A stretch of DNA of 42,235 nucleotides. It comes from a virus. Below the pieces are notes generated by a model. That model was not told the DNA's origin and searched no databases. It saw only the letters and a list, made by a program, of their open reading frames with translations. Made by a program: the position numbers and the translations under genes. The DNA lies in UHGV virus genome UHGV-1993760. One strand, given 5' to 3'. Of this stretch, positions 1 through 35,155 are shown piece after piece (position 1 is the first letter of the stretch; every line of letters starts with the position of its first letter).

Positions 1-1248
1 GAGCAGTTTGCGGACAAACGCCGCGTTCGCCATCTCCAGCCCGGTCGCATCGTCCGGCGGGGTTGGTGTGGTTGGCGTGCCGGTGAACGCCGGGCTGTCC
101 AGCGGCGCTTTTGTATTCGTCTCGTCCATGACGACTTTGACGGCTTTTGGTGTGGCCGCCAGTTCTTCGCTGTCGTTATCCGTGTCACTACAGAGTTGCA
201 CCAGGCCTTTTTCTGTCGTGGTGGCATTACTTCCCTTCAGGTCATCAACAATCTGCTGCGCCTCGTCCCTGCACCGTTTCGCTTCCTGCGCATTGCCTTC
301 GCTCGCATCCTGACTGGCCTTCGCCTGCCGGGCGTATTCTGCGGTGGCATTTTCATGTCCCTGCGCCTTATTTGCCGCATTTTCTGCACTGGTCGCAGCC
401 GAAGATGCTGCTTCTTTATGCTGGCAGGCACGTTCAGCAGCATCAACCGATTCATCCCGCGCTGCCCCTGATGTCTGTGCACTGTTTTCTGCCTCACCCG
501 CAAAACGTTCCGCATCATCACGGGCTGTTGTGGTGGCTTCTGCGTCCTGTGCGGTTTGCTGTGCGATTTCTGCTGCATTATCCGCGTGTTTTTTTGCATT
601 CTGCTCGCTTTTTGCTGCCACTTCGGCGCTGGCTTTTACCTCGCCGCTCAGCGTTGCGACTTCACCGAGTTTATCAACAGCCTTATCGACGATTTTGTCT
701 GCGTCCTTAACGGCCTGCTCTGCGCGAGCCGCATCCTGTGTGGCAGATGATGCCAGCTGTGCCACCTGCCTTTTATCTTCAGCAACGGCCTCGGCGTTCT
801 GCTGTACGTTATCCGCCAGCGTCTCGCAGTCGCTCTTGATTTGTTGCGCATCAGCGACATGTTGCCCGGCCTGTCGTTCGCTTTCCGCTGCCGCCTCCGC
901 GCTCTGCTGCGCCTGCGCCACCAGTTCTTCGAACCGCTTAACGACATCCGGTTTTAAATCGCCTTCATCGAGGGCGGTCAGAAAGTCGTTCAGTGTACCG
1001 GGCTTTGAATCGTCGTAAACCGAAATATCACCAACACAATATTCTCTTTCAATACATGACCGAAGATAAACGTCATATCTTCCGGTCTGAGCCTCAAATG
1101 CATATTCTCCTGCCGGCCCCGTCAAAACTGTTGCCACCGTTCTCATAACCACTGCGGATGTATTCTGTCGGGCTTTCAGAATAATATGGTATCCGGACAT
1201 GGGGAGTCCCGTGCCATCCGTCAGCACACCCGAAATTAATACAGACAT
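1..1248 (-). CDS. side tail fiber protein, lambda Stf-like N-terminal and shaft region (partial; gene runs off the window start)
   Basis: Not in ORF track because no stop lies in the window. ATG at 1248-1246 preceded by AGGA; frame is open to position 1. Translation MSVLISGVLTDGTGLP...GTLNDFL...long Ala/Gln/Glu-rich coiled shaft...LAATPKAVKVVMDETNTKAPLDSPAFTGTPT matches my recollection of lambda Stf. Confidence 0.6.
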   Translation of the reverse strand, partial: MSVLISGVLTDGTGLPMSGYHIILKARQNTSAVVMRTVATVLTGPAGEYAFEAQTGRYDVYLRSCIEREYCVGDISVYDDSKPGTLNDFLTALDEGDLKPDVVKRFEELVAQAQQSAEAAAESERQAGQHVADAQQIKSDCETLADNVQQNAEAVAEDKRQVAQLASSATQDAARAEQAVKDADKIVDKAVDKLGEVATLSGEVKASAEVAAKSEQNAKKHADNAAEIAQQTAQDAEATTTARDDAERFAGEAENSAQTSGAARDESVDAAERACQHKEAASSAATSAENAANKAQGHENATAEYARQAKASQDASEGNAQEAKRCRDEAQQIVDDLKGSNATTTEKGLVQLCSDTDNDSEELAATPKAVKVVMDETNTKAPLDSPAFTGTPTTPTPPDDATGLEMANAAFVRKLL

Positions 1249-1272
1249 GTTTATTTCCTGATTCAGAAAACA

Positions 1273-2361
1273 TTAACCAAAATAATTGACGCCTTTTTTC
1301 TTGCCACTGGCTTTCCCCTTTGCAGAAATATCCGTGGTCAGTGACAGATTCAGCGTAAATCCCTGTCCCGGTACCAGTGAAAACTCCACAGACTCAGCCT
1401 GCCAGTGATGGTCCTCACGCACACCAAATCCCTGCGTGACAAAACGCATCTCCGCCCCTGCTTTCAGCAGTTCCGGCCTGCAGGGCAACGTTATCGTCAT
1501 CTGGCGTCCGGCTTTCTGCACACGTTTAACCTTCGACTCTGCACAGTGTTTTGCGGTGCCCTGGTCAGGCTGGGTAAACGGATGCCGCTTATCTGTTGAC
1601 TCCACGTCAACTTTAACTTCACGTGTGCGTCCGTCACGAGCATCAAAATACCGGACCCCAACTTTCCCGCTCTTTTTATCCCCCTTCGCACCACCCGCAG
1701 CGCCCTGTCGCTCACCTTCACGATAATCCCAGTCTGATACCATACCCGGCGTAATGGTTATCTCGGGCGCATTTCTGCCCCCCGTACTCTGTGATGCCCC
1801 GTATTCCAGAAATAACCAGTAGCCACTGGTCGGTTTACTGGTGGCGCCGTACATACCTGCAATGCGGGATAAGAGGGCAGCATCAGATTCTGATGACTGC
1901 ATCACCCACGGGATATGAATATCAGCAAGCACCGATGAGACGCGCGCCACCAGATTATTTTCAGTGGCGATGGTTTTCACCAGGTCGCCCAGTGTGATAT
2001 CGCTGAAAGCCCGGGTTTTCAGTGCGGTCACGTCTGCGCCATGTTTTGACGCATTCATGGGGGCTGCGGTGGCATAAATGGTGAGCCGGCGGGGAGGACC
2101 ACCGCTTGCCACCTGACAGACGGTAAAACTGCCTTTATTGACCAGATTTCCGTTGAACCCCAGTCCCAGCGTTAGCACCGCGCCTTTCGGTGGCAACGCC
2201 AGCGTCTCGCTGAACAGCGTTATCATCAGTTCATCGGACCGCTTTGTGCCAGCACCATTATCGGTATATCGCAGCTCAGCCAGCCCACGTTTTATTGCCT
2301 TCGTGATATCCTGGCCTTCCGCTGTCAGACTGAAATCCGGCTGATATTCATTCAGTCCCAT
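1273..2361 (-). CDS. tail protein D (P2 gpD-like late gene D family)
   Basis: 362 aa ORF at the distal end of the tail operon after U and X; residue pattern resembles P2 gpD as recalled. Confidence 0.65.
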   Translation of the reverse strand: MGLNEYQPDFSLTAEGQDITKAIKRGLAELRYTDNGAGTKRSDELMITLFSETLALPPKGAVLTLGLGFNGNLVNKGSFTVCQVASGGPPRRLTIYATAAPMNASKHGADVTALKTRAFSDITLGDLVKTIATENNLVARVSSVLADIHIPWVMQSSESDAALLSRIAGMYGATSKPTSGYWLFLEYGASQSTGGRNAPEITITPGMVSDWDYREGERQGAAGGAKGDKKSGKVGVRYFDARDGRTREVKVDVESTDKRHPFTQPDQGTAKHCAESKVKRVQKAGRQMTITLPCRPELLKAGAEMRFVTQGFGVREDHHWQAESVEFSLVPGQGFTLNLSLTTDISAKGKASGKKKGVNYFG

Positions 2362-2570
2362 AACTGAAACGTCTCCTTCACTTCCGGTTCATATACCCAG
2401 TCCGGCAACACGATTTCCACTCCCGCCGGATAGACCGGACCAAGGTCAGCCAGTCCGGGATTGGCTTCCAGTACCGCCGCCAGTGACTGGTTAAGCCCGG
2501 TACTGCCATAGTGTCTCTGGCAGATGTCATCCAGCATATCGCCGTCAGTAGTCCGCCAGTTTTTCGCCAT
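2352..2570 (-). CDS. tail protein X (P2 gpX-like)
   Basis: 72 aa; ...LAAVLEANPGLADLGPV...LPD... resembles P2 gpX; overlaps neighbours as in compact tail operons. Confidence 0.7.
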   Translation of the reverse strand: MAKNWRTTDGDMLDDICQRHYGSTGLNQSLAAVLEANPGLADLGPVYPAGVEIVLPDWVYEPEVKETFQLWD

Positions 2571-3039
2571 AGTATTTCAGCTCCAGTGTGAACGTTTTGT
2601 TCTTCGGCGCACCGCCGGGAAGAAAGGACGTGGTGTTATCTGAATAGGCGGTTGCCACGAAATACCCCATCACATCACCTGTGCTCGAGACCAGAAGATG
2701 CGGGGCCGGATTGTCATCCACCATCTGAACCAGTGTATCAAGGGCATCCATTCCCACACCGTCACGAAATCCCGCGTGCGCCATACCTTCAAGGGTTATT
2801 GTTCTGGCCCCCTTGCCGGTATACTGCAGCAGATCGTTTTTTCCGATAAGCTGTTGTTCATCCCATCGCCATTCCATCGTGCGCTTCATGGCGTTATAAG
2901 CAGCAGTATCAATACTGAATTCAAACTCACCAAACGACAGCATGACGCGGGAGGCGACATCCGTTAATGAGCCCACCGCGTCCCATGCTTCGCGCTCAAG
3001 CCGGTTTACACCCCAGCCCAGCAAATCCACCATATTCAC
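2545..3039 (-). CDS. tail protein U-like
   Basis: 164 aa ORF directly downstream of the tape measure gene, the position of P2 gpU; weak pattern resemblance only. Confidence 0.5.
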   Translation of the reverse strand: MNMVDLLGWGVNRLEREAWDAVGSLTDVASRVMLSFGEFEFSIDTAAYNAMKRTMEWRWDEQQLIGKNDLLQYTGKGARTITLEGMAHAGFRDGVGMDALDTLVQMVDDNPAPHLLVSSTGDVMGYFVATAYSDNTTSFLPGGAPKNKTFTLELKYYGEKLADY

Positions 3040-4688
3040 CCCCAGAATGCATCACCATCGGTCATGCGGGAACGCTGACCAAAATTAATATCTCCCAGAT
3101 TTTTCGTTACCCTGTCTGCCAGTTGTCCGGCATCCTCGCCGGGCTTCTGAGTGATGTTAAATTCCGCCCGTATCTGATACGTGGGTTTTACTTCCACCTG
3201 GCTGACACTGCCGGGGGTATACTGAAGAGCCGAGAGAGGATCCGAATTACCCTGCCCCTGAACTGCTGCAGGTAGTCCGTCAATATAGGTGCGGGATTTC
3301 TCTTTTATCGCCTTAAAATCAGGTTCTTCTTTCGGCCCCAGCAGAGGGTCGAGAAATGCATCAAACTTTTTATCGTCATGATTCCAGGGGAGATAACCGC
3401 GGGTGTCTTTATAGGCCTGTACAACCTGTTTTGTCAGGTCAGGATTTTGCCTGAGCAGTTCATCAAACCATTCACCCTGACCGTTTTTCTGCGCCACTGC
3501 TCTCGCCAGCTCCGGCGACCCCATTTTTGCCAGATACTCCAGCACTTCCCGTCGGTCCTCTCGCGGATCATCCGCCAGCCCCCACTCAATGGCTTTTTGT
3601 GTAATTCCGGCAAGAACTTTTCCAAATTTCCACATCCAGGCAGCCATGTCGATCAGCGCCGGCAGGGCATCATCACGAATAAATGCCCGGATTTTTTCCA
3701 GCCCACCATTCTTAAACCAGGCCGCAAGGTCATCCGTCACCTGTTGAATATGTGGGGCAAGTTCATTACCCAGCTGTCCGCTGATTTCATCAATGGAAGA
3801 ACTCAGAACATTACGGAGATTTGACAGTGCCACATGTCCCTGAACCGCGCCATCAGCCCCTGCCTTTGTCACCAGGTTATAGCGTTTCTGCTCACTGATA
3901 AGCTCCCGATAAGTTTTCCCTGACAGACGCATCCAGGTCAGAATTTTATTGGCCTCACCACCGAACAACGCATCAGCCATCCCCGCCGCCTGCTGCTCAT
4001 TCTCAACCTGCAGTAAGCGATCAAACAAAAATTCGACCTGCTCCTGGTTGCTTTTTCCGGCCATTACGCCCGCTTTCAGCCCCAGTTTACCGAATACCTC
4101 CTGAATGGCTCCTTTGTCCGTGGCACCATTATCATCGTCAAAAACCTTGTTCCGGTATTCCTCAAACAGATCACCGATGTTTTCACCGTTTAACCCCATC
4201 TGACGGCCCAGTGAATCCCACGCCGCATAGGTTTCATAGTCCACCCCGTAGCTCCGCGCTATCCCTGCACGCTCTGCTGTTTCCGAATTCCGGTTCAGTA
4301 CCGCACTTGCACCTGCTGCCAGCGTAAGCCCGGAACCAACCGAAAGCCCCAGCCCGGTCTTAAGAACGGTCCCGGCCCACCCTTTCCAGCGAGCCAGACG
4401 TTCCGCGCGCGCCAGCTTACGGTTAAATTTGTCCTGCTCTCCGGTGGCATCATGAATTTTTTTACCCAGCTTTTCATACTGCTTTCGCAGATCAGTAATA
4501 TCCTGTCCAGCCAGAACGCCAGCCTGAATTTTTCGTTTCAGTACGTCCTGCTGGCGTGTCAGACGAGCCACTTCCTGTGTTGCCCCTGATAATCCGTGCT
4601 TCAACCCATCAACCGATTTTTTCCACGACGGATCTATCGTGCCTCCGATCCGGATATTCGCTTTAAGGTTATCGCCCACCGTTGCCAT
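3036..4688 (-). CDS. tail tape measure protein
   Basis: 550 aa, helical/Gly-Ala-rich, directly downstream of the E/E' chaperone pair whose frameshifted product overlaps its start. Confidence 0.7.
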   Translation of the reverse strand: MATVGDNLKANIRIGGTIDPSWKKSVDGLKHGLSGATQEVARLTRQQDVLKRKIQAGVLAGQDITDLRKQYEKLGKKIHDATGEQDKFNRKLARAERLARWKGWAGTVLKTGLGLSVGSGLTLAAGASAVLNRNSETAERAGIARSYGVDYETYAAWDSLGRQMGLNGENIGDLFEEYRNKVFDDDNGATDKGAIQEVFGKLGLKAGVMAGKSNQEQVEFLFDRLLQVENEQQAAGMADALFGGEANKILTWMRLSGKTYRELISEQKRYNLVTKAGADGAVQGHVALSNLRNVLSSSIDEISGQLGNELAPHIQQVTDDLAAWFKNGGLEKIRAFIRDDALPALIDMAAWMWKFGKVLAGITQKAIEWGLADDPREDRREVLEYLAKMGSPELARAVAQKNGQGEWFDELLRQNPDLTKQVVQAYKDTRGYLPWNHDDKKFDAFLDPLLGPKEEPDFKAIKEKSRTYIDGLPAAVQGQGNSDPLSALQYTPGSVSQVEVKPTYQIRAEFNITQKPGEDAGQLADRVTKNLGDINFGQRSRMTDGDAFWG

Positions 4689-5114
4689 AACATCGCTTCC
4701 TCTCTTCCGACTCCGCCAGCATCATTGCCACAAAATCCGTATACGGCAGCGCCATCACATCTCCGGGAGACCACCCGAACCAGGCACCGGCACGCCGTAT
4801 CGCTGTCAGGATGCTTTCTTCTTCCGCCGGACCGGCGGCAGCAAAAAAACATTAAACTGACGCTCCAGGGCCAGGTAATCACACGCTTCCATGTTCATCA
4901 TGTCTGCCGCGTCCATCCCACACAGACCGGCAATCATATCCAGATCAGCCTCTGCTTCCGGTTTGTTACTCCGGCGATGCAACAGACGATCGCGGACAGT
5001 GGGCGCACGCATAGTGACGTGCGTGATCGTCTGTCCTGATGCGGTGACATACGGCACGGATAACACAATTTCCACGCTGCTGGCAGGAACACTGTTTTTT
5101 TCCGACATAAGCAT
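4669..5114 (-). CDS. tail assembly chaperone E+E' (predicted programmed -1 frameshift product)
   Basis: Minus-strand T_TTT_TTG heptamer (plus-strand A-run 4843-4849) in the zero frame of E; the -1 frame stays open for about 57 codons and stops at TAA 4671-4669, overlapping the tape-measure start, as in P2 E/E'. Confidence 0.55.
4806..5114 (-). CDS. tail assembly chaperone E (P2 gpE-like)
   Basis: 102 aa ORF between tail tube and tape measure; contains the slippery heptamer near its 3' end. Confidence 0.65.
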   Translation of the reverse strand: MLMSEKNSVPASSVEIVLSVPYVTASGQTITHVTMRAPTVRDRLLHRRSNKPEAEADLDMIAGLCGMDAADMMNMEACDYLALERQFNVFLLPPVRRKKKAS

Positions 5115-5167
5115 CTCCTTTAAAAAGAAAAGGCAGCCTGAGCTGCCTGAATGACAGGATCCCCGGA

Positions 5168-5686
5168 TTAAACCCGGATGATTTTTTTCAGATCCGCCAG
5201 AACATTAACGCCGTTAATACGACGCACAAATTCCTCCGGAATAATGCAGATGGTTTCCACACCGTCAACAGCCTGACGGTAATAACTCAGTGACATTTCC
5301 ACCGTCACCGAAGCCTCTGCCTGTGACGTTGCGGGACGCGCATCCGGCGTGATACTGGTGATCATCCCCTGCAGAGTTTCCACCTGCCCGCTGGTCGCAT
5401 TCCCCACCTGGTAAGCCTGGCGGACAACAATCTCCGGCGAATAAAGCCCGGCCTGTAATCCCAGCAGCGTAAGCATGGCAACATCATAACCATAAATCTT
5501 AAACGAACAGGTCAGCGCTTCCATGCCGTCATCCACTGCCACCGGTGCATCCATTGCGCCAGTTTTGATATCCACTGTCGTGATATTAATGGCAGGTGGC
5601 GTGTATTCATGTGCCCCCTGAAGGCGGATTCCGCCAGGAAGAAATAACGCCCATGCGCGCAACAGTTTTTTTTCACCCGTCATCAT
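5168..5686 (-). CDS. tail tube protein (P2 FII-like)
   Basis: 172 aa ORF immediately downstream of the sheath gene; size and position typical. Confidence 0.65.
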   Translation of the reverse strand: MMTGEKKLLRAWALFLPGGIRLQGAHEYTPPAINITTVDIKTGAMDAPVAVDDGMEALTCSFKIYGYDVAMLTLLGLQAGLYSPEIVVRQAYQVGNATSGQVETLQGMITSITPDARPATSQAEASVTVEMSLSYYRQAVDGVETICIIPEEFVRRINGVNVLADLKKIIRV

Positions 5687-7158
5687 ACCGTCAGTTCCTC
5701 CAGCGCCAGTTTATTGTTAATCATTGCCCGCAGTGTCAGGCGCTCCAGTGGTGACTTCGGCCCAAAGTCATAATCGATATACAACTGCCCTGCCGCCAGG
5801 GTTTCTGCAGTGTTCAGTTCATCGTTCAGCCATGCACTGCCACCGTGGATCGCGCCCAGATTTTTAAGCTGACGCATATAGGCATTAATGCTGCCAAGAA
5901 TGTCGTCTGCCACATCCCGATCAAGCGGGCGATCGACATAAGGCAGCATGGCCTCCTGGATGCTGTCCTCAATCACATCTGCAGTGCGGCGTACCGGCTC
6001 AAAACGCCACTGACTGTGGGATGTGCACAGACGGTTACCCCAGTGTTTAAAACCGTCATGGCGAATAATGGTGGAGATATTTTCCATGTTCAGCAGGTTT
6101 GCCGTGCAGTTCTGCTCCCCGAGAATAAACGTATCCACCTGCTCCAGACCGGTGATATTCATCACGTCCTGGTTTGATTTGGACCACCACCACCCTTTTT
6201 CGTAATCAATACGGGCACGCAGCCCGGCAGCACGAGCCGAATATGGACGAAATATCGTTTGCCCGCTGTCATCCGTCACTGACACGCGCGGACGCAGCAG
6301 CTCCACACGCCCACCAAATGACGCGCGCCGCTGAACCACATCCTGCGGCGTTGCCATTGAAGGCGAGTCAATATAGGCCACAGCCCGCAGCTTCACGGCA
6401 TACGTTTCCAGCGCCTTTGCCACGCCATCATCCTCACTGTACCCCGTGGCAATGAGGACGCGCGGTTGATAGCCTGTCACGCCCTTACTTTCTGTCAGCG
6501 CCTCCATGGCCTGAATCACCGCCGCACGCTGTTCGGCCTCTTTCGTCTTTGTTTTACTTTCTGCGCGCACCACAATCACCAGCGCACCAGTCTGGTCAAA
6601 AATATCTCGCAGGGCCGGGTATAATGTTCCGGCTGTGCCCAGTTTCCCTGCCTGAGTAATGGCCCCTGCCACCACCACTGGTGTATTGACCGGGAACGCC
6701 TCATCTTCTCCGCCGGATAACGTCAGGCTGAACGGCAACACCACTTTATTTTCAGCGTCTCCTGCATTCAAGGTGCTGACAGCCGCCGTCACAGGCGAAT
6801 CCCCCAGCGCATTCACCACTTCAGTCACACGGTCCGCCGTGGCGTTAACCTGGCTGTGTTCGTCCGTCCCCAGTGTTATCGTCAGGGTCGTACCTTTCAG
6901 CGAGGCCACTGTCTGCGCGTTTTGTTCTGTGGCAGCCACAGCAACAACCGAAATCTTATTACCGGCCCGACCTTCCTGTTTCGCCGTGAAATCCAGCGCC
7001 GTTCCCAGCAGCCAGGAGCCGGCTGTGCCGGAAGCGCACACACCACCAGAGGCGTCCGGCGCTGTCCCCACCAGGCCAATCACTGCCGTGGAGATGGTCT
7101 GCACGGCAACCGTGCCTGTCGTCAGTTCAATGGTTTCAACACCATGTAATCCGGGCAT
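5683..7158 (-). CDS. contractile tail sheath protein (P2 FI-like)
   Basis: 491 aa; N-terminus ...TISTAVIGLVGTA... and C-terminus ...AETLAAGQLYIDYDFGP...LERLTLR... resemble P2 FI as recalled. Confidence 0.8.
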   Translation of the reverse strand: MPGLHGVETIELTTGTVAVQTISTAVIGLVGTAPDASGGVCASGTAGSWLLGTALDFTAKQEGRAGNKISVVAVAATEQNAQTVASLKGTTLTITLGTDEHSQVNATADRVTEVVNALGDSPVTAAVSTLNAGDAENKVVLPFSLTLSGGEDEAFPVNTPVVVAGAITQAGKLGTAGTLYPALRDIFDQTGALVIVVRAESKTKTKEAEQRAAVIQAMEALTESKGVTGYQPRVLIATGYSEDDGVAKALETYAVKLRAVAYIDSPSMATPQDVVQRRASFGGRVELLRPRVSVTDDSGQTIFRPYSARAAGLRARIDYEKGWWWSKSNQDVMNITGLEQVDTFILGEQNCTANLLNMENISTIIRHDGFKHWGNRLCTSHSQWRFEPVRRTADVIEDSIQEAMLPYVDRPLDRDVADDILGSINAYMRQLKNLGAIHGGSAWLNDELNTAETLAAGQLYIDYDFGPKSPLERLTLRAMINNKLALEELTV

Positions 7159-7212
7159 ACATTTCTCCCATAAAAAAACCGCCCTCAGGCGGTCAGATGA
7201 TTAACTTCTTTT

Positions 7213-7758
7213 TCAGGTATTTTGTGGCTGCTCAGGCCAGCTAATATTGTTGTAAGTGGTCTTATCCGTAATAGCGCTGAAATCCATCGCCTGCAGCGAT
7301 TTCGCGTAAATGCGGTACGCTTTGAGCTTTTCCCTGTCTTCGTCGCTGATTAAACCCAGCAGCAGGTCTTTTTCCCATTCGCTGGTCATGATACTGACCT
7401 GTTTTAACAGTGCGTCACGCTCATCTTCCGCTTTAAGTTTGTAGTCGAAAACAAATTCATCATTGCGGTAGAACCAGTATCCCGACGCCTCAATGCGACG
7501 ATTAGCGGTAATATCCGGCAACTCAATCACACTTTTATTTTCCGGGCAGATTGAGGTGATGTCTTTTCCAACCCAGACCACTTCGCCAGTTTCAACATAA
7601 ATAACTTTCAGAGTGTCTGGCTGAAATTTTTCCTGGGCTTCGTGCCATTCCTGACCATCATCGGAGAGCAGCCACAATAAAAATTTATGCTGTCGCGCCA
7701 GCTGGTATTGCTCAATTGTTTTAGGGTTTTGTACCGTAAGATTTTTTAAGTGCATCAT
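7213..7758 (-). CDS. tail fiber assembly chaperone (Tfa / P2 gpG-like)
   Basis: 181 aa ORF directly downstream of the tail fiber gene; typical Tfa size and position. Confidence 0.75.
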   Translation of the reverse strand: MMHLKNLTVQNPKTIEQYQLARQHKFLLWLLSDDGQEWHEAQEKFQPDTLKVIYVETGEVVWVGKDITSICPENKSVIELPDITANRRIEASGYWFYRNDEFVFDYKLKAEDERDALLKQVSIMTSEWEKDLLLGLISDEDREKLKAYRIYAKSLQAMDFSAITDKTTYNNISWPEQPQNT

Positions 7759-7760
7759 AA

Positions 7761-9146
7761 TTACAAACTCGCTACATTCCGCCAGACGCCATTAATCAGA
7801 ACCTGCACCGGGCGGGCATTGGCCCAGTCCATACTTTCACCACCATCAAGACCGCTGATAAGGTGACCTGATGGTGCGTTCCCGCCACGCCCAATACCAA
7901 TGGCACTGCCCAGACGCACATCCTGTACACCGCCTGTTTTGGTCTGATAGCGGGCATCAAAGTTTCCGTAGTTTGATGGAACCATCTGCCCGTTTACAGC
8001 GAACGTTATACTGTTATCCGTATTCCTCTGACTGTAAAAATGCCAGCCGGAATCATCACCAAGCTCTGCAACTACAGGTCGGGATGAATTACCCCATAAA
8101 TTAAACGTTGCGTTTTTCGTGGAGTTGTTGGCGCTGGATAACGTGAATTTTTTAGCATTTCCGGCCTGAATATTTTTTAACGCTATCGCCACACCATTCT
8201 GGAAACGAAATACATGCTGTCCATTCGCATAAACATCCAGAATGCCGTCGCCGTTTTGTTTTATACCTGTATCGTTATCCCCGAAAGCAATTGAGTTTCC
8301 GCCCAGCGCGTTCTGAACGCCGATACCCAGCGCACCATTGACCTGAGAACCGCCGCCAACAGACACTTTATGCGACATGGATATTTCACCCGTCCGCAGA
8401 TTAATAGTGAACGGTCGAAGTGGACCAATATCGCCATTCTCGCCCTGACCTTCACTGGTAGGGATAAGGTGCAGGCACTCTTCCGAACGACGAAAAATCA
8501 GACCAAAGGCTTCGTTGAAAATCCTCAGCGCATTAACACCACGGATTTTCAGTTCCCCGGTCATGGTGTCACCATCACGCTGAACGGCATTTTTTGCCTT
8601 GTCCACCGTGGGTTTTAATCCGAGGTTTTCAACAGCCTCATCCTTGTCTTCCACATCCGAAAGATTCTTTTTTCGTTGCAGATAGCGTCTGTCTCCGATT
8701 TCCTGAGTAATAATGGCCCTGTCCGGATCAACTTCCAGCACCACGTTTTGTGCGTGCGTCAGCCCAAGAACCAGCGTCAGAATAACTTCCTTGATAACAG
8801 AGTCCGTCTGGTCTGGTAAAAAGGTGTCGGGATAACGTCCGTACGCGATAAGCGTACCTCTGTCGCTGATCATCCCCAGTTCACGAAGGGTTTTACCGGG
8901 GTATGATTTACAGTCAATCACAATATCCCCGCTGATGAAGCCCTCCTCCACCGCACCGTCGGAAAAGGGTTCCTGCCCGAATTCGCCGTACAACGATGTC
9001 ATTGCTGCCATTTCATCCGGCGTGGATGGCAATGCCCGCCCGCCCCCGTCACCAAGCAGAACATGCCGGACGGTCACGGTTTGCCCGTTCTGATATGCTG
9101 CTTCAATTTCTGCAGCGCCGGACGTTGTCAGAATCAGTCCATTCAT
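7761..9146 (-). CDS. tail fiber protein (P2 gpH-like with Stf-like C-terminal receptor-binding region)
   Basis: 461 aa; C-terminus ...GDNDTGIKQNGDGILDVYANGQHV...NYGNFDARY...VLINGVWRNVASL resembles lambda Stf / P2 H C-termini as recalled. Confidence 0.8.
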   Translation of the reverse strand: MNGLILTTSGAAEIEAAYQNGQTVTVRHVLLGDGGGRALPSTPDEMAAMTSLYGEFGQEPFSDGAVEEGFISGDIVIDCKSYPGKTLRELGMISDRGTLIAYGRYPDTFLPDQTDSVIKEVILTLVLGLTHAQNVVLEVDPDRAIITQEIGDRRYLQRKKNLSDVEDKDEAVENLGLKPTVDKAKNAVQRDGDTMTGELKIRGVNALRIFNEAFGLIFRRSEECLHLIPTSEGQGENGDIGPLRPFTINLRTGEISMSHKVSVGGGSQVNGALGIGVQNALGGNSIAFGDNDTGIKQNGDGILDVYANGQHVFRFQNGVAIALKNIQAGNAKKFTLSSANNSTKNATFNLWGNSSRPVVAELGDDSGWHFYSQRNTDNSITFAVNGQMVPSNYGNFDARYQTKTGGVQDVRLGSAIGIGRGGNAPSGHLISGLDGGESMDWANARPVQVLINGVWRNVASL

Positions 9147-9733
9147 ACACCTGCCTCACTCTGCCCGCCTGTGGGCACTGTCTTTGTTGTCACACCGGTA
9201 CTTCTGATTTTTTCTGTCGCCATCACATAGCCGTAACCAAATCCACGCCCTGTGCTGTTCCCGTAAACGTGAATACTGAACCAGCTGCGCAGATTTTTGG
9301 CACGGAGCACCGCATGCTTCAGATCCTGATGATCATTCATCAGCACCGGTAAATCTTTCTGCTCCACGTTCAGACGGAAGGTATACGGCTCCCCGGGTGG
9401 GGTCTGCTCATACCACTCAACAATCTGCGACCGGAAGGGACTGTCAGCCAGCGATGCCATCAGCGCCGCTTTAGTCCCTCTGTGGCGGTGGATGTATGCA
9501 GCACGTTTTATCGCAGACCTTTTTTCCGCCTCCGTCCAGTGTTCATTCCAGGTGTCCACCGCCATTTCCCAGGCCAGCCATGGCAGCAATTCAGCAGGAC
9601 ATAAATCGGGATTTTTGACATAGCGGATCAGACATACTGCGATTTCCGCCAGCATATCACCGGCGGTACTGTCCACCACCCGCTCTGCCCGGCTGGCGCT
9701 GACAGGAAGTATGCTTCTGATTTTGTCATTCAT
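9143..9733 (-). CDS. baseplate/tail protein I (P2 gpI-like)
   Basis: 196 aa; position between J and the fiber gene; overlapping stop/start. Confidence 0.65.
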   Translation of the reverse strand: MNDKIRSILPVSASRAERVVDSTAGDMLAEIAVCLIRYVKNPDLCPAELLPWLAWEMAVDTWNEHWTEAEKRSAIKRAAYIHRHRGTKAALMASLADSPFRSQIVEWYEQTPPGEPYTFRLNVEQKDLPVLMNDHQDLKHAVLRAKNLRSWFSIHVYGNSTGRGFGYGYVMATEKIRSTGVTTKTVPTGGQSEAGV

Positions 9734-10640
9734 CGGTTGTCTCCACCTTGTTCAGTGTGACTGAGCGACACCACGGTGCCTGCCCCATCGCAGGAACGAT
9801 ATCACTGCCCGGAGAGGTCAGATTCACCGTAATCACCCCGGTCTGGTGAAGGGCACCATCCATACCAGAACGGGATGCCACCGAGCCAATCCGGTGGACG
9901 CTGTCAGTGTATGACTGCAGCGCCTTGCGGGCATTTGCCATAACCAGTTCACCATCCAGTCCGTAGGGAATATGAATATCCGCCACCACATCGTAGGGAA
10001 TAATTTCTGCCGTCCGGACACTGACAAAATCCGTCAGGGGACGGGTTTCATCATCACAAACTGATGCTGCCACCTTATCCAGCAGGGGGTGTGATGCAGT
10101 GCCATTTCCGGACCGGGATAACACATAAAGAAAAACCCGGCCTTCCTGCGAATGTGTTTCCGGCCCGTAAGCCTTCACATCCAGCACATCAGGATCAGCA
10201 CTTTGTGCAAAATAGTGATACGCATTTTTCGCGCCAGCGGTGCTGAGCCGTGCCCATGACAACTGGATACGTTCGCGAAAAGCGTCATCATCTTCATACA
10301 CCGCCGGCGTGGGCGGAATGGTGCTGTCGTCTGCCGGGGTAATAACCAGCCGCTGAACCTGATAATTCGCGCCAACCTGATCCAGATCGTTCCCACCGGC
10401 ACTGGCAAGCAGTACAGCACGGACAGCATCATTTATCTGCTGGCGCATCAGCGCCACCCGATAAGCCAGCGCCTCTGCCCATTTATACGCGGGATCAGAT
10501 TCCACCAGAGCCGAAAACAACGTATCCAGCTCCTGATACTTCGCCACTATCTGAGTGACCAGCACAGCGGTGTCCGGCACCTCCACCGCATCCGGTACTG
10601 GTATCGCGGACAGATCAATAATTGCCTGAGACGTTGCCAA
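9726..10640 (-). CDS. baseplate assembly protein J (P2 gpJ-like)
   Basis: 304 aa; conserved position after W; overlapping operon arrangement. Confidence 0.75.
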   Translation of the reverse strand: MATSQAIIDLSAIPVPDAVEVPDTAVLVTQIVAKYQELDTLFSALVESDPAYKWAEALAYRVALMRQQINDAVRAVLLASAGGNDLDQVGANYQVQRLVITPADDSTIPPTPAVYEDDDAFRERIQLSWARLSTAGAKNAYHYFAQSADPDVLDVKAYGPETHSQEGRVFLYVLSRSGNGTASHPLLDKVAASVCDDETRPLTDFVSVRTAEIIPYDVVADIHIPYGLDGELVMANARKALQSYTDSVHRIGSVASRSGMDGALHQTGVITVNLTSPGSDIVPAMGQAPWCRSVTLNKVETTDE

Positions 10641-10971
10641 TTTTTATCTCCTCGAGTCGAATCGTATCCTGAGTTTCGTTATTCACCCCGACAAGCGTCA
10701 GCCACGCGCTTCCTTCTCCTGTCCACGTCACTTCCACCCGCCGGAGAGTCAGGCGGGGTTCCCAGCGTTCAAGGGCGGTTACCGTTTCACGAACAATTCT
10801 CACCCGCGTGAAATCATCCTGTGGGTTATCAAGCAGACTGAAAAGTCTGCTGCCGTATTCCCTGAGCAGGACCCGGCTGCCGACCGGTGTTGACAAAATA
10901 TCGGTGACGGACTGGCGCAGATGTTCGTTACCGTGCAGATATCTGCCGGTGGCTGAATCAATACCAATCAT
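10615..10971 (-). CDS. baseplate protein W (gp25/GPW family)
   Basis: 118 aa; ...SVTDILSTPVGSRVLLREYGSRL... is a GPW/gp25-like pattern. Confidence 0.8.
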   Translation of the reverse strand: MIGIDSATGRYLHGNEHLRQSVTDILSTPVGSRVLLREYGSRLFSLLDNPQDDFTRVRIVRETVTALERWEPRLTLRRVEVTWTGEGSAWLTLVGVNNETQDTIRLEEIKIGNVSGNY

Positions 10972-11004: not shown

Positions 11005-11628
11005 TTACATTTGCTGACCAGGCTGTCCGGTGCTGCCACCACTGTCGCCCCGGTGATTGTGACCGTTATAGACAATTCTGATTTGACTCATCGTTCCGTG
11101 ATAATCAGAAACCTCACCACCGACCATCAGATCCGCCTTAACCACCGCCTCAGCATTCATGGTTGCTTTACCCTGTACGGTCAGGGTATCTGTGATTTCT
11201 ACCGGACCGTCCAGGGTTCCCCTGCCGGTAATTTTATAGCTGCCGCCTTCAGCCAGCGTGATGGACAGGGCATTAGCCTGACGGTCGTAACGGATTTCCG
11301 TTCCGGTATCAAACAAAATAACATGTTCGTATTCACTGCCCTCAGGGACAGGAATGGCGTCAATATTAGCCCCCGGATACACCCGACCGTTACGCAGATC
11401 GCCTGCCTCCGATATCACTGTAACGGCATCTCCGGGAGCCGGGTAATTACTGACTTGCATGTAGCGCCCGGACTGTACCTGAATCCAGGGCAACGGAGGC
11501 GAAAGCACATCCCCGATATCCACCCGAACCATAACCGGGCTACCCGGGATCACCTCGTCCACCACGCCGCGACGGACCATGTCCGCCACCCTGCGGCGTA
11601 ACTCTGCCACTTCATCTGCCAGACTCAT
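11005..11628 (-). CDS. baseplate spike protein V (P2 gpV-like)
   Basis: Internal ATG at 11628-11626 preceded by GGAGG; MSLADEVAELRRRVADMV... The upstream 98 codons of track ORF 11005..11922 overlap the preceding gene and look spurious. Confidence 0.6.
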   Translation of the reverse strand: MSLADEVAELRRRVADMVRRGVVDEVIPGSPVMVRVDIGDVLSPPLPWIQVQSGRYMQVSNYPAPGDAVTVISEAGDLRNGRVYPGANIDAIPVPEGSEYEHVILFDTGTEIRYDRQANALSITLAEGGSYKITGRGTLDGPVEITDTLTVQGKATMNAEAVVKADLMVGGEVSDYHGTMSQIRIVYNGHNHRGDSGGSTGQPGQQM

Positions 11629-12178
11629 CACCGGTGCCCTCCGATTTCCAGATAAGACGATAATCCTGCTCATGTCTCTTGCCGGTTTCCGGTACTTTAC
11701 CCAGCCAGACTTCCTGTAACGGCGCACCTGCCGGAACCGCAAACGGATCTTCGCCGACCGGAATGTCCTGTTCGAAAGAGACACGGAAAACGATGTAGTC
11801 GTCCAGCAGCCGGTCGAAGGTATCCACCTCAGCATCGATAAAAACCGCCGGATCAACGTTATCCAGCCCGAACGTGGCTCCCTCAATCCAGTCAGATAAA
11901 TCCATCGCCAGACAACGGGCAAAAATCTGCGGTTTTGGCACGTTTTCCGTCTTCCCGGCCCGGTCTGTCACCACAAACAGATCACATTTCAGCGTGACCC
12001 GCGTTTGCCCGTCAGCAAAATGAGCCTTGTCCCAGCCCGGTACATCCACAAACACAGCAGGCGTCACCAGTTGCGTCACTTTTTCCGGGTACTCATCGGC
12101 ATCTTCCACCCAGGGAATTTGTTTCAGACTGTCAATCACCGCCTGATGCCAGGCGCCCATCATCAATGGCTCCATCAC
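11612..12178 (-). CDS. putative tail completion protein (P2 R/S position)
   Basis: 188 aa ORF between head completion genes and baseplate V; assignment by position only. Confidence 0.35.
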   Translation of the reverse strand: MMEPLMMGAWHQAVIDSLKQIPWVEDADEYPEKVTQLVTPAVFVDVPGWDKAHFADGQTRVTLKCDLFVVTDRAGKTENVPKPQIFARCLAMDLSDWIEGATFGLDNVDPAVFIDAEVDTFDRLLDDYIVFRVSFEQDIPVGEDPFAVPAGAPLQEVWLGKVPETGKRHEQDYRLIWKSEGTGDESGR

Positions 12179-12897
12179 TCCAGCCCCTTAAATACCCGGA
12201 ATTTCAGTTCATGCTCAAAATTTTTCAGGATCAGTGCTTCCGCATCCGGAAAAACAAAATCCTCTATACGGTTCAGCATGGCTTCATAAATATCAATTTC
12301 CGCTTCACGCACCCTCCGTCGTCCGGATGCCTGTCGGATCAGTATCGTTTTCCTTTTTGATATACGTCCGTTACGATTTTCCGCTTCGAACTGATTGATA
12401 AAGGCATCATCCGTTGACCAAGTGGTGACAGGCAGGGATTCCCCTGCAGGTTTAAAACGGATCTCCCGTGCCTTCCTGCGGCGGGAAGCTGGTGCAAAAC
12501 GCCCCCGCTCATCGCGCAACTGATGGCGTTCGCCGCGTCGCCCCCCACTGATGCGTCCGCGCAGATCGCGTACTTTGATGGCATTCAGACCGAACCATAC
12601 CTTCGCCTCATCAAACTCATCACCGTTACGACGAATGATAAAATTATGCAGAACACGCTTTTTGATCATTTTCTGACTGCGTGGGGCAACCTGTTTTTTA
12701 AACTCTGCCATAGCCTTCATCCGCAGTGCAGACGCGGCTCTTTTCAGCGCCACGCCCCAGGCTTTACGGATCTGACTTTTTGACCCACCCAGTTTAGCGA
12801 TAATTTTCAGCACCTCATCTTCATCAATATCGACGACGAGGTTTCGTGCCAGCCGTCGCTGCCGGGCACTGCTTCGTTCATGCTCTCTGACTGCCAT
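12175..12897 (-). CDS. putative virion morphogenesis / tail completion protein
   Basis: Arg/Lys-rich ORF; likely start at ATG 12897 (MAVREHER...), since the longer track start overlaps FII; function assigned by position. Confidence 0.35.
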   Translation of the reverse strand: MAVREHERSSARQRRLARNLVVDIDEDEVLKIIAKLGGSKSQIRKAWGVALKRAASALRMKAMAEFKKQVAPRSQKMIKKRVLHNFIIRRNGDEFDEAKVWFGLNAIKVRDLRGRISGGRRGERHQLRDERGRFAPASRRRKAREIRFKPAGESLPVTTWSTDDAFINQFEAENRNGRISKRKTILIRQASGRRRVREAEIDIYEAMLNRIEDFVFPDAEALILKNFEHELKFRVFKGLE

Positions 12898-13285
12898 AAC
12901 GTTTACTCGGTCGTTCCGGTGCAGCAGGTGTATTTCTCCCCGGCTCTCCACGCGCAAGGGTGATGGTAATCACCCCCTGACCCACAGTGCCTGACTCACC
13001 CCAGCCGGGATCGACTACCTGATAGGGTTCGCCGTGGATCATGACCCTGTCATATTTTTTCAGACCGGCGGCCCATGCGCTCCGGGTAAATAACACGGGC
13101 GCAGTATCACGAATTTCGCCGCTGCCAGTGTTCATCCCGGTGTTTTCTGCCGGGGCATCAAAAACGGCACGGATTCTTCTTTCCGTGCCGTCCGGATATA
13201 TGCTGATTTCCGTCCCCATCGTATCCAGGATGATGTCATCCGCATCGCTCATGGCCTGATCGAACAGATTATCTAACATCATCAC
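12878..13285 (-). CDS. head completion protein (lambda FII-like)
   Basis: 135 aa; MMMLDNLFDQAMSDADDII... resembles lambda FII as recalled; ATGA overlap with FI stop. Confidence 0.7.
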   Translation of the reverse strand: MMMLDNLFDQAMSDADDIILDTMGTEISIYPDGTERRIRAVFDAPAENTGMNTGSGEIRDTAPVLFTRSAWAAGLKKYDRVMIHGEPYQVVDPGWGESGTVGQGVITITLARGEPGRNTPAAPERPSKRYGSQRA

Positions 13286-13647
13286 TCCCGGATTTTTTCT
13301 GCCAGACCGTCCGCCAGCAACGCTGGAACTGCGGCTTCATTAACCAGCACAACACTGGAGGCCCGGGCAAACATCAACATTTTTCCCGTCACAGCATCAC
13401 AGGCTGGCATATGCGCCGTTTTCAGCATACGCACCCGGGCGAGTCCCCGCTCAGAATGCATTCCGTCGCCGGATGCATCGTTGCCCACCTCTTCCTTCCC
13501 TGTCTCCTCCCCATCGAATCCGGCGGCCTCCTCTTCCCATTCCGCCAGGCGCTGCTCAAGATCGGCTTTTGAACCTGAAATATCTGCTTCACGCCCCAGA
13601 ATCACTGCCAGTTCCTGCAAACGTTCAGTCATCTGCTCTTTTGTCAT
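13282..13647 (-). CDS. DNA packaging protein FI (lambda FI-like)
   Basis: Internal ATG at 13647 with GGGAGA 6 nt upstream; MTKEQMTERLQELAV... resembles lambda FI; C-terminal ...ERGLARV... motif. Confidence 0.65.
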   Translation of the reverse strand: MTKEQMTERLQELAVILGREADISGSKADLEQRLAEWEEEAAGFDGEETGKEEVGNDASGDGMHSERGLARVRMLKTAHMPACDAVTGKMLMFARASSVVLVNEAAVPALLADGLAEKIRE

Positions 13648-13697: not shown

Positions 13698-14726
13698 TTA
13701 TTTCACCTGAACCACCACAAACGCATCCGGATCCGGCAGCACCATCAACGGCGCAGACTGCGTCATGGTATACTCGCACCCCGGGTCCCCCACCTCTAAC
13801 CAGTGTTTCGGATAACGAATCGCAGAGGTGATCCCTTCACTCAGTGCCTGATTATCCTGAATGGCACCATAACAACGGACGCCTTCCGCCTGAGTGTTCC
13901 CCAGAATCAGTGTGCCTTCCGGCAGATAACGCTGTTCATCCCCGTTTTCATCGACGTAAGCGGTTTTCGCCACCACAATAGCCAGATCACCGTAATAACC
14001 CTTAAAAGAGACTACGGAGCCCAGGTCTTTCAGCGCGGTTTCCAGTTCCGATTTTGAACCACGACGGGTATCCAGTTTTTCACGGAAAAGCTTAAAGCCA
14101 TTCAGCATACGCCAGACCGTGCCATCCATAATCGCGATATTGATGGTCCCGGAGGCAAAATCGCAGTACGCATCCAGATCGTGCGTTGGATCAAAGGTGT
14201 CAGCATTCTGCTGTGACCATCTGTTGCCGCCAGCCTGAGTAATGTTATTGGTGGCAGAGCGCCCAAAATCCACTTCCACCGTCTCAAACTGTTCCCCGCT
14301 CATGGTGTACTTACCCTGCAGAACGGCACTGACCGCCTGCATTTCTTCCACCTGCACAATCGCCTGCTCTTCCTGCTTCAGGTTGTCCGTCAGAATACGC
14401 AGGCGGCGGTAGGCCGGGTCATTAAGACGGGCCGGATCTTCCCCCGGAAGACGTTCCACTGCCTGCTGATAATCAAAGCGGTGTTTGGGTTTTACATAAC
14501 CGGGACGTAACACGCGGGTTTCACCACCACGGCTGCGCAGCACTTTGCCTGACACCACCGGAGACACATACGCCGCAACCGGTGTTTTGCCGGTAATTTT
14601 ATCCAGCATGACTTCCTGAGTATGGAAAGTGATCGTGCGACGAAAGAACAGCTCCAGAAACAGCGCACGAAATTTCACTTTCTGCTCGGTGTACCCGAGT
14701 AACTGACGCGTGGTAAATAACCCCAT
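13698..14726 (-). CDS. major capsid protein (lambda gpE-like)
   Basis: 342 aa; ...KFRALFLELFFRR..., ...PGYVKPKH..., ...EEMQAVSAVLQGKYTMSGE..., ...DTRRGSKSELETA... match recalled lambda E. Confidence 0.9.
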   Translation of the reverse strand: MGLFTTRQLLGYTEQKVKFRALFLELFFRRTITFHTQEVMLDKITGKTPVAAYVSPVVSGKVLRSRGGETRVLRPGYVKPKHRFDYQQAVERLPGEDPARLNDPAYRRLRILTDNLKQEEQAIVQVEEMQAVSAVLQGKYTMSGEQFETVEVDFGRSATNNITQAGGNRWSQQNADTFDPTHDLDAYCDFASGTINIAIMDGTVWRMLNGFKLFREKLDTRRGSKSELETALKDLGSVVSFKGYYGDLAIVVAKTAYVDENGDEQRYLPEGTLILGNTQAEGVRCYGAIQDNQALSEGITSAIRYPKHWLEVGDPGCEYTMTQSAPLMVLPDPDAFVVVQVK

Positions 14727-14795: not shown

Positions 14796-15131
14796 TCAGG
14801 CGTGGCTGATGGCACTTCCCACAAATGCGTTGGCTTTTTTCACCGCATCCACAGAGTCAGGCCAGACCAGCGACTCAGTGGCAAACGTACCGCTTTTGTA
14901 GTACGTCAGCGTGGGTTCTGTTCCGGTAAGCGCCAGAGCCAGCACCCCCACTGCCGTTCCGGCTTTCTGACCATCCCATGCCACCAGTTTACCGGTGGCG
15001 TCATCCAGCATCAGTGGCGTCAGTGCAGGCGTGGCAGCACTGATACCACTGGTGGCTGTTGCGGTATGCGCCGGATCGCTTCCGGCAAAAATGTGCACAT
15101 CCGCGCGCTTTTCCGTGGTGGTTTTAATCAT
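14796..15131 (-). CDS. head decoration protein (lambda gpD-like)
   Basis: 111 aa; ...SDPAHTATA...[18 protein letters not shown]...YYKSGTF... closely matches recalled lambda D. Confidence 0.9.
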
Positions 15132-18347: not shown

Positions 18348-18553
18348 AGCCCCACTCCTGCCGGGCCGCGACGCCGTCCGGATACACCCAGCGCACTTTC
18401 CAGCTCTTCAATATACTGACGCAGTTCACCAATCGTCGCCCGCGAATACTGAACCTGACGCCCGTCCTTGCTGACGGAAACCACAGCACGTCCGATCATC
18501 AGTTCATGTAATGCCCGGCGGGCATCACAAAGCATTTCATGCGTATAAACCAT
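18344..18553 (-). CDS. head-tail joining protein (lambda gpW-like)
   Basis: 69 aa; ...ARRALHELM...SKDGRQV...YIEELE...RRRGPAG... matches recalled lambda W. Confidence 0.85.
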   Translation of the reverse strand: MVYTHEMLCDARRALHELMIGRAVVSVSKDGRQVQYSRATIGELRQYIEELESALGVSGRRRGPAGVGL

Positions 18554-26994: not shown

Positions 26995-27178
26995 GTCTGT
27001 AACAACCGAACTGATAATCTGCCAGACCCGCCATAACAAGCTGAGTCAGTATTAACTGGCAGCGTTCGCGTGAAAGGTAGGTATTCTGCGCAATTTCCCC
27101 GACGGTCGCCGGTTCGGTGACGCTTAATTCATTAAATACCACTCTGGCGGTTTCGGTCATATCCTGCTGTTTTAGCAT
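26981..27178 (-). CDS. small hypothetical protein
   Basis: About 65 aa from ATG 27178 (MLKQQDMTETARVVFNEL...); own terminator; divergent from the DUF262 operon. Track ORF extends further upstream into likely non-coding sequence. Confidence 0.4.
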   Translation of the reverse strand: MLKQQDMTETARVVFNELSVTEPATVGEIAQNTYLSRERCQLILTQLVMAGLADYQFGCYRRLPQ

Positions 27179-27431
27179 GTCTTTTTCCCTTTTCTGGTTA
27201 ACGTGACACACCAATAACTCTTGTCTGAAAAGCCAGCAAGCTGAAAGACCGGTATTCGCAACCACCAGCACGTTTAACGTACTGCGCCGTTTTTCGGACA
27301 CAAAAAACCGCCTGGCGGCGGGTTTAAGCTGTGTGGCGTAGTAACCACTCTTAACACGATATAATATTTTTTGCGTACGCGTTATAGTTTTCTTACAATC
27401 TATTTCCAACTCCAATTAAAGGAACAGTGAT

Positions 27432-28589: not shown

Positions 28590-28591
28590 CT

Positions 28592-30290: not shown

Positions 30291-30353
30291 AAGATTCTCC
30301 GTTACTTTATCCTGGTATTATATACACATAAAAGTTGGGAAAGTAGAACGATT

Positions 30354-33254: not shown

Positions 33255-33273
33255 TGTTCATCATCTCGAAAAA

Positions 33274-35131: not shown

Positions 35132-35155
35132 ATGATTACTGGTATTTTTACTAAC

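Follow-up and report, generated by a model that had tools for sequence, protein, structure and literature searches.

To which part of a contractile-tailed phage particle would a fibre of the lambda Stf type be attached? The question is raised by the viral genome UHGV-1993760, a DNA of 42,235 nucleotides (the whole stretch is called the window here), in which a Stf-like fibre gene follows the genes of a P2-type contractile tail. A preliminary description of bases 1-9146 had proposed a mosaic virion, with a lambda-like head on a contractile tail and with two tail-fibre loci. The mosaic was borne out by gene content, and both loci are present. The balance of evidence tips, by a modest measure, towards the reading that the window holds the complete late block of a lambdoid temperate Escherichia coli myophage with two fibre systems, the second of which would be anchored by a collar, possibly at the neck.

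Sequences and searches

The late block lies on the minus strand throughout, and the window ends inside the second fibre gene. As the genome of the window is not one of the 5,426 complete E. coli genomes searched, the leftward extension was read in the closest genome, E. coli CEA224S, whose prophage is 99.7% identical to the window over bases 1-9146 and 99.4% over bases 1-24756. Four relatives were examined: CEA224S (integrated at a tRNA-Ser site), one prophage at ssrA and two at ompW. Prevalence was determined in 5,426 complete E. coli genomes, with the presence of at least 80% of bases 1-9146 as the criterion. Gene families were assigned with Pfam (threshold scoring) and PHROGs, and virion proteins were compared with those of other phages by tblastn (E-value cutoff 0.001). 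For fold evidence, AlphaFold2 models were searched with Foldseek against the PDB, and matches with E ≤ 1e-3 were taken as strong. Terminator-like hairpins were identified by a consensus scan and are pattern matches only.

A second fibre gene with its own chaperone

The two fibre loci comprise the following genes in the window.

1-1248, minus strand: Stf-like second fibre gene, first 416 codons, ATG at 1248-1246, running off the window
7213-7758, minus strand: Tfa-type assembly chaperone of the primary fibre (PF02413, E 5e-23; 92% identical to phiP27 L55)
7761-9146, minus strand: primary gpH-like baseplate fibre (PF12571 at the N-terminus)

The gpH-like fibre with Tfa that had been assigned to 7213-9146 was confirmed by its two families, PF12571 and PF02413. 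The preliminary description had also placed a gene with a Stf-like N-terminus and shaft beyond the tail gene gpD, continuing past the window edge, and this gene was found as proposed. It starts 24 nt past the gpD stop, with AGGAAA upstream as a Shine-Dalgarno sequence, and encodes a collar domain (residues 1-93), a helical shaft rich in Ala, Glu and Gln, and a Phage_fiber_2 repeat. In the CEA224S copy the families PF08400 (phage_tail_N, E 1e-54) and Phage_fiber_2 (PF03406) were detected. Over residues 1-123 the protein is 44% identical to lambda Stf, and it matches PDB entry 9e7m_Ta with E-values from 1e-17 to 2e-19; the Stf assignment thus holds under homology search by both PF08400 and 9e7m_Ta. 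No similarity to lambda Stf was found beyond residue 123.

The possibility that the gene is a truncated remnant had been raised at the outset, and the closest genome speaks against it. In CEA224S the second fibre is complete (757 residues) and is followed, 14 nt past its stop codon, by a gene for a 194-residue DUF4376 protein (PF14301, E 4e-17) that lies beyond the window edge; then comes the tRNA-Ser gene next to hyaA, where the prophage ends. The same layout from gpD to the Stf-like gene recurs in the three other relatives at ssrA and ompW, with fibres of 672, 608 and 490 residues; in the annotation the fibre is followed by a DUF4376 gene at the ssrA locus and at one of the two ompW loci. 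The Stf-like open reading frame (ORF) is intact in all four relatives, at three integration sites. The preliminary description had suggested looking for tfa or invertase genes in this direction; in the closest genome a DUF4376 chaperone stands in the place of tfa, and no invertase was found.

Experiments on Alteromonas phages V22 and A5 have defined their DUF4376 proteins as tail-fibre chaperones (PMC7289586, PMC10579305), and only for these phages has the function been demonstrated; our searches found no relative with a solved structure. By this likeness the second locus would be a full fibre-plus-chaperone unit whose chaperone class differs from Tfa. The consensus scan placed terminator-like sites after Tfa and after the tube gene, at or near the operon boundaries of P2, but none in the interval from gpD to the Stf-like gene, so co-transcription with the sheath-to-gpD genes is probable.

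Decay was seen in one of the relatives, E. coli Z1324SEC0014. An IS903B element stands just past the Stf-like gene, at the expected DUF4376 position (2930-4497), and the major capsid gene (18773-19801) has an internal stop, so some copies are decaying.

Conservation of the two anchors

Three other phages, phiP27, Rac-SA53 and vB_Apl-pPE4, carry the same four genes: a primary fibre, Tfa, a PF08400 fibre and a DUF4376 protein. Their tails differ, that of phiP27 being of the Mu/SfV type and those of Rac-SA53 and vB_Apl-pPE4 of a third myophage type. By tblastn the four fibre genes are the only virion genes common to the lineages, apart from a marginal match to phiP27: a search of the phiP27 late region with all virion proteins of the window retrieved the four fibre genes and, beyond them, no more than a 31-residue match at the gpV tip (E 0.001). 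The tail had first been called P2/Mu-like; gene order and families support the P2 part, and this search lends the Mu part no support. In the three other phages the four genes are contiguous, whereas in the window the sheath-to-gpD block, in P2 order, splits the two pairs.

The primary fibres of these lineages share their distal parts and differ in their anchors. The window protein combines a P2-type N-terminal adaptor (residues 1-158) with an exchangeable distal part that is 76% identical to phiP27 L54. The adaptors of the window (residues 1-158), phiP27 (1-85) and Rac-SA53 (1-229) are mutually unrelated. Distal parts have been swapped across lineages: residues 159-405 of STEC316 gpH and 86-332 of phiP27 L54 are 99.6% identical. 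As its adaptor is specific to the P2-type baseplate, the primary fibre would be mounted on the gpJ/gpI wedges as in P2.

The second fibre shows another pattern. Its N-terminal domain is 95-100% identical within this prophage family, 74-78% identical to that of the other two myophage lineages, and 96-99% identical between Mu-type and Rac-SA53-type phages. Over the C-terminal 250 residues most pairs share only 17-31% identity. The ratio of nonsynonymous to synonymous substitution rates (dN/dS) in the N-terminal domain is 0.06-0.14, which indicates purifying selection. Among 317 phage records with the domain, 4 are 80-90% identical to the window copy, all of them myophages, and 313 are below 60%; those listed among the latter are mostly lambda-like, Stx-converting and other siphophages. 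The low dN/dS and the conservation argue that the anchor of the second fibre is functional and that, unlike the primary anchor, it does not change with the baseplate family.

These data also bear on a rival explanation, namely that recombination at the prophage end brought in the Stf-like gene and its chaperone as passengers from lambdoid siphophage relatives, and that they are expressed or silent but not built into the virion. The locus lies at the extreme prophage end, adjoining the attachment site, Stf is non-essential in lambda (PMC12617516), and lambdoid prophages recombine freely, as the window itself illustrates: its early region is about 94% identical to phiP27, and its late region agrees at 99.4% with that of a prophage whose early region is Rac-like. 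Neutral cargo would sit uneasily with intact ORFs in four of four relatives at three integration sites and with an N-terminal dN/dS of 0.06-0.14. The N-terminal domain moreover belongs to a myophage-associated clade, set apart from the 313 more distant records, and the gene is tightly spaced to gpD, with a Shine-Dalgarno sequence and no intervening terminator-like site. We consider this explanation improbable.

Fold of the N-terminal domain and proposed placement of the second fibre

The AlphaFold2 model of the N-terminal domain (predicted local distance difference test score, pLDDT, 81) consists of a beta-sandwich at residues 2-77 and a helix at residues 102-134. Only two matches were obtained with Foldseek at E ≤ 1e-3: the StfN collar of Ur-lambda (9e7m; E 8e-9, TM-score 0.88, 47% identity) and the collar spike of the Vibrio myophage XM1 (7kjk_A3; E 1e-6, 25% identity). 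The neck fibre of cyanophage A-1(L) came next (E 5e-3). By phmmer, residues 1-190 of the Stf-like protein align with residues 1-181 of XM1 gp40 (E 1e-8).

Both strong matches are collars, in different places. In Ur-lambda, StfN residues 1-91 form a dodecameric collar at the gpV/gpM junction that carries four trimeric fibres (PMC12617516). In XM1, gp40 starts with a domain of some 100 residues that leads into a coiled coil, and six gp40 trimers, with eighteen such domains, bind the neck proteins gp4 and gp5 at the head-completion and tail-terminator rings (PMC10457771).

From these likenesses we propose the following arrangement. The second fibre would begin with a beta-sandwich collar domain of about 93 residues, followed by a shaft predicted to be helical that, by analogy with lambda Stf and XM1 gp40, may form a trimeric coiled coil. 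Its N-terminal domains would self-assemble into a ring round an exposed cylindrical part of the tail rather than bind to baseplate wedges; that the collar domain does not co-vary with the baseplate lineage points to such baseplate-independent anchoring. Since a sheathed tail hides its tube, the cylinder most obviously left exposed is the neck, and the most likely site for the ring would be the region of FII and the terminator, as in the solved structure of XM1 gp40. FII (12878-13282) and X2 (11612-12163) are candidate docking partners there. We thus infer that the second fibre is incorporated into virions at the neck and takes part in adsorption, possibly as an accessory adhesin, open to exchange, that makes adsorption faster or broader. 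The neck as such is put forward tentatively, and we would not call it probable. The label of tail fibre that was first given to both loci may mislead for the second, since its anchor does not follow baseplate type and its structural relatives are collars of the tip or the neck.

Other evidence weighs against this placement. By sequence the N-terminal domain has a much nearer relative in lambda Stf, a fibre of the distal tail tip (44-47% identity), than in XM1 gp40 (23%); residues 1-110 alone fail to retrieve gp40 by phmmer, and gp40 itself scores below the PF08400 threshold (18.3 vs 26.6 bits). PHROGs assign the neck proteins of this prophage, of phiP27 and of Rac-SA53 to different families, and tblastn and PHROGs revealed no neck or baseplate family shared by the three Stf-carrying myophage lineages that could be a common docking partner, so co-occurrence cannot place the second fibre. 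In phages with the P2-type tail the N-terminal domain is a distinct subtype (74-78% identity), which could be an adaptation to a lineage-specific partner. The family is known from genes alone, and incorporation of the second fibre into virions is to that extent inferred. Finally, the rest of the Stf-like gene was read from CEA224S, which differs from the window by 1.8% in the Stf-like stretch and has another early region, so that the window's own gene would be complete only by this comparison.

Several of these points would fit an attachment of both fibres at the baseplate or tail tip, in a dual-fibre baseplate like that of lambda with J and Stf or of T4 with long and short fibres. The domain shares 44-47% identity with StfN of lambda, whose place is the distal tail (PMC12617516), the Stf-like gene lies in the tail operon directly past the hub gene gpD, and in phiP27 and Rac-SA53 both fibre pairs are adjacent and come straight after the baseplate genes. 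In lambda, however, the partners of the domain are gpV of the tail tube and gpM, the distal tail protein, and in a contractile tail the tube lies under the sheath and the initiator ring inside the baseplate. An anchor tied to the baseplate is also hard to reconcile with 96-99% identity across phages of different baseplate lineages in which the primary fibre changes its adaptor each time, and the only solved myophage relative, XM1 gp40, bears the domain at the neck. Attachment of both fibres at the baseplate therefore appears unlikely to us, although it deserves to be kept in view.

A wider proposition is that the PF08400 domain could be a portable self-assembling collar that plugs one fibre-plus-chaperone cassette into unrelated tails with no need to suit their baseplates, at the tip on siphophages and at the neck on temperate enterobacterial myophages (this family and the phiP27 and Rac-SA53 types). 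We offer this as a conjecture that may well fail.

How the fibres vary

The second locus had been suggested as a typical site for host-range switching or invertible segments. Of this suggestion, variability stands, by the swapping of distal parts, and inversion does not. A switchable cassette, that is, an invertible segment or phase-variable fibre of the kind found in Mu (G), P1 (C) or Citrobacter phage Chris1, is recommended by the highly variable distal parts of the fibres and by the primary fibre locus of Chris1, where an invertase accompanies oppositely oriented fibre and chaperone genes. No serine-invertase motif was detected in the window or at the loci of the four relatives, whereas Chris1 scored as the positive control, and no invertase is annotated at the four loci. 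Neither fibre is flanked by inverted repeats, the best pairs being short and at chance level, and no alternative C-terminal fibre segments in opposite orientation were found. A switch of this kind is thus very improbable, and host range would vary as recombination replaces distal fibre parts, at the second locus together with the chaperone, and not by DNA inversion.

Head, neck and contractile tail

As the preliminary description had claimed, the head genes are lambda-like and co-linear. All nine, Nu1-A-W-B-C-D-E-FI-FII, score above their Pfam thresholds and run in lambda order from 20954 down to 12878.

20445-20954, minus strand: Nu1, terminase small subunit (PF07471, E 8e-20)
18557-20473, minus strand: gpA, terminase large subunit (PF05876 and PF20454)
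18344-18553, minus strand: gpW, head-tail joining protein (PF02831)
16776-18299, minus strand: gpB, portal of the lambda family (PF05136, E 5e-95)
15170-16786, minus strand: gpC, S49 protease/scaffold (PF01343), with an internal tandem repeat of 138 bp x 3.7 (Tandem Repeats Finder)
14796-15131, minus strand: gpD, head decoration protein (PF02924, E 1e-23)
13698-14726, minus strand: gpE, major capsid protein (PF03864, E 1e-65)
13282-13647, minus strand: FI, packaging protein (PF14000)
12878-13282, minus strand: FII-like head-closure or head-tail attachment protein (PF05354, E 4e-12; phrog_82)

The repeat in gpC (15296-15803; 138 bp, 3.7 copies, 81% matches) encodes four units of 46 residues (…ALPEAKGREQLAQ…GMTV.QAK…LAAAP…) in the C-terminal, Nu3-like scaffold part of the protein.

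Two genes, termed X1 and X2, lie between FII and the tail genes.

12175-12897, minus strand: X1, Neck1 or tail-completion protein (phrog_27, 'tail completion or Neck1', E 2e-28)
11612-12163, minus strand: X2, tail terminator with the gpU / Mu-terminator / pyocin-collar fold (AlphaFold2 model and Foldseek)

Neither has a Pfam match or a significant PDB match by sequence or small profiles, and hhalign comparisons with P2 gpR and gpS gave probabilities below 1%. X1 is conserved in Hafnia phage yong2 and Citrobacter phage Chris1 by tblastn, and its counterpart in vB_VpaM_XM1 also belongs to phrog_27. The X2 model (pLDDT 74) matched the Mu terminator (9khy, E 3e-7), the pyocin R2 collar (6u5j, E 5e-7) and lambda gpU (3fz2, E 7e-5), with the tail terminator of cyanophage A-1(L) also among its best structural matches. 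By this fold, a lambda-type FII would meet a gpU-fold terminator of the contractile-tail kind. A head of the phage 21/Gifsy type would accordingly be joined to a tail of the P2/R2-pyocin type through a neck set of gpW, FII, a Neck1-type protein and a gpU-fold terminator. FII, X1 and X2 are kept together with P2-type tails in yong2 and Chris1.

The tail genes, from 11628 down to 1273, have the content and order of P2 (V-W-J-I-H-chaperone, then sheath-tube-E-E'-T-U-D).

11005-11628, minus strand: gpV, spike / baseplate assembly protein (phrog_9992, E 1e-23; weak Apex motif; start from RefSeq)
10615-10971, minus strand: gpW, gp25-like sheath initiator of the baseplate (PF04965)
9726-10640, minus strand: gpJ, baseplate (PF04865, E 2e-21)
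9143-9733, minus strand: gpI, baseplate (PF09684, E 9e-36)
7177-7194, minus strand: terminator-like hairpin in the Tfa/sheath gap, at the position of the P2 V-operon / F-operon boundary
5683-7158, minus strand: sheath (PF04984 and PF17482; pyocin R2 PA0622, E 9e-53; 64% identical to yong2)
5168-5686, minus strand: tube (PF04985, E 4e-24)
5131-5148, minus strand: terminator-like hairpin in the tube/E gap
4806-5114, minus strand: tail chaperone E (PF10109)
4842-4848, minus strand: TTTTTTG, site of the -1 frameshift to tail chaperone E', the frame being open to 4669 (sequence and translation)
3036-4688, minus strand: tape measure (phrog_3654, E 5e-215, and several tape-measure PHROGs; no Pfam match)
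2545-3039, minus strand: gpU-like tail protein (PF06995, E 3e-27)
2352-2570, minus strand: tail protein X (PF05489, E 1e-19)
1273-2361, minus strand: gpD-like baseplate hub or 'late control' protein (phrog_52, E 2e-95)

The -1 frame of E' overlaps the start of the tape measure, which is the E/E' arrangement of P2. The gpD-like hub scores below the threshold of PF05954 (23 vs 30.1 bits) and is about 50% identical to the D proteins of yong2 and Chris1.

Early region and cargo

About 94% identity to phiP27 is found in the early region, integrase (40922-42235) included; the similarity covers about 48% of bases 17300-42235 and lies entirely within about 22470-42235. The CEA224S prophage, which shares the late region (99.4%), has a Rac-like early region and is integrated at serT. 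A phiP27-like early region next to a late region like that of the serT prophage places a recombination joint near 24.8 kb, and the window prophage probably uses the phiP27 integration site and not serT. No stx genes were seen among the window ORFs.

A lone gene for a K88/F4-type fimbrial subunit (21298-22122, minus strand; PF02432, E 3e-58, with a signal peptide) separates the lysis genes from Nu1/cos. Neither an usher nor a chaperone gene was found near it, and in CEA224S a gene annotated 'hypothetical protein' is found at this position. It resembles a prophage moron and might feed an F4-type fimbrial system of the host. A GmrSD_N/DUF262 protein (27432-28589, plus strand), a HEPN protein (28592-29281, plus strand) and a C5 cytosine methylase (29250-30290, minus strand) form a probable anti-phage defence or modification island (27432-30290) of low GC content (38-40%) in the phiP27-like early region. 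Further cargo-like genes encode an AraC-family regulator (26131-26844, minus strand), a TerB-like protein (24902-25327, minus strand) and a secreted or lipoprotein-like SPFH/Band-7 protein (38958-39785, plus strand).

Distribution and significance

Of the 5,426 complete E. coli genomes, 73 contain the module, which is integrated at three or more different sites, and its genes are already annotated, generically, in RefSeq. No isolated phage with the exact module was found: bases 1-9146, compared by megablast with 50,697 phage records, matched fibre segments only, and the best sheath matches among phage records were 64% and 61% identical. Our literature search returned no paper on the combination of a lambda-like head with a P2-like tail, and none on yong2 or Rac-SA53; papers on Wolbachia phage WO and on urinary coliphages contributed nothing on the point, and a 'P27' paper proved to deal with podoviruses.

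For annotation, a lambda head next to a P2 tail should be read as a widespread lambdoid myophage lineage, with relatives among Hafnia, Citrobacter and Vibrio phages, and not as an assembly artefact or two adjacent prophages. The cassette of Stf-like and DUF4376 genes moves among at least three unrelated contractile-tail lineages with the same anchor, whereas the primary fibre must swap its anchor. If the collar is indeed independent of the baseplate, it would offer a general handle for engineering the host range of myophages and tailocins, and it would explain the spread of host-range modules among E. coli prophages, Stx2e phages included. If, moreover, the collar rings the neck, these common prophages would bear neck fibres that have so far gone unrecognised, and with them a second host-range determinant open to free exchange.

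Comparison with known systems

Among phages with a related head, phage 21 and Gifsy-1 have capsid proteins 82-84% identical to gpE of the window and a co-linear order from Nu1 to FII. Unlike in the window, the genes of a lambda-type non-contractile tail (Z, U, V, G, T, H, M, L, K, I, J) come next.

The tail is closest to P2 and the R2 pyocin: among solved structures the sheath is nearest to pyocin R2 PA0622, and X2 has the pyocin collar fold. The window differs from P2 in that it is without the P2 head, ogr and detectable gpR or gpS, has gpX between U and D, carries the Stf-like gene and its chaperone at the ogr position, and has a sheath of only about 35% identity. Late control is presumably exerted by a putative lambdoid Q-type antiterminator and not by Ogr. 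Membership in the Peduoviridae was considered and rejected, the head being lambda-type, the early region lambdoid and phiP27-like, and the ogr position taken by the Stf-like gene.

The fibre genes have their best-known counterparts in the Stx2e phage phiP27 (NC_003356), where L54-L57 correspond to those of this prophage family with identities of 92% for Tfa, 77-78% for the DUF4376 protein, 72-74% for the Stf-like N-terminus and 76% for the distal part of the primary fibre. phiP27 differs in its HK97-type head, its Mu/SfV-type tail, its unrelated primary-fibre adaptor and its stx2e gene, and its fibre pairs are contiguous at the prophage end.

Ur-lambda Stf (PDB 9e7m; PMC12617516) has the same succession of PF08400 collar, linker, helical shaft and Phage_fiber_2 repeat. 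The siphophage collar grips gpV and gpM, whereas the window prophage has no homologues of either, and lambda Stf ends in a gp37-like tip matured by Tfa (PF02413), whereas the distal part in this prophage is unrelated and its chaperone is DUF4376 and not Caudo_TAP. Vibrio myophage XM1 (PDB 7KJK; PMC10457771) resembles the window in its contractile tail, its simple P2-like baseplate and its pairing of baseplate spikes with a second trimeric adhesin, gp40, in which a coiled coil follows an N-terminal domain of the same fold but of only 23-25% identity. The distal part of gp40 is a tailspike and not a fibre, the XM1 head is not lambda-type, and the neck site was seen in XM1 while the window is known from genes.

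The overall plan recurs in yong2 (MZ516527) and Chris1 (ON041214), which have a lambda-type terminase and portal, FII, X1, X2 and the same P2-type tail (40-64% identity). In both, a protease-capsid fusion replaces C-D-E and the tail genes run V-sheath...D-W-J-I-H. Fibres are encoded at one locus in each, accompanied by an invertase in Chris1, and neither phage has a Stf-like gene. As these are isolated phages that share the head-tail combination, the lineage is old and established. Vibrio phage vB_VpaM_XM1 (PP580404), with a lambda-type head and a P2-type tail, has the same plan and gene layout at low identity. Its identification with the XM1 of the cryo-electron microscopy study was considered and rejected; it is a different phage and has no Stf-type N-terminal domain. 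It carries two consecutive fibres with PF12571 collar N-termini and a chaperone gene between them (19825-24324), another way to fit two fibre sets to this tail type. The combination of a lambda head with a P2 tail is thus neither rare nor new, and the dual-fibre cassette was first sequenced in phiP27.

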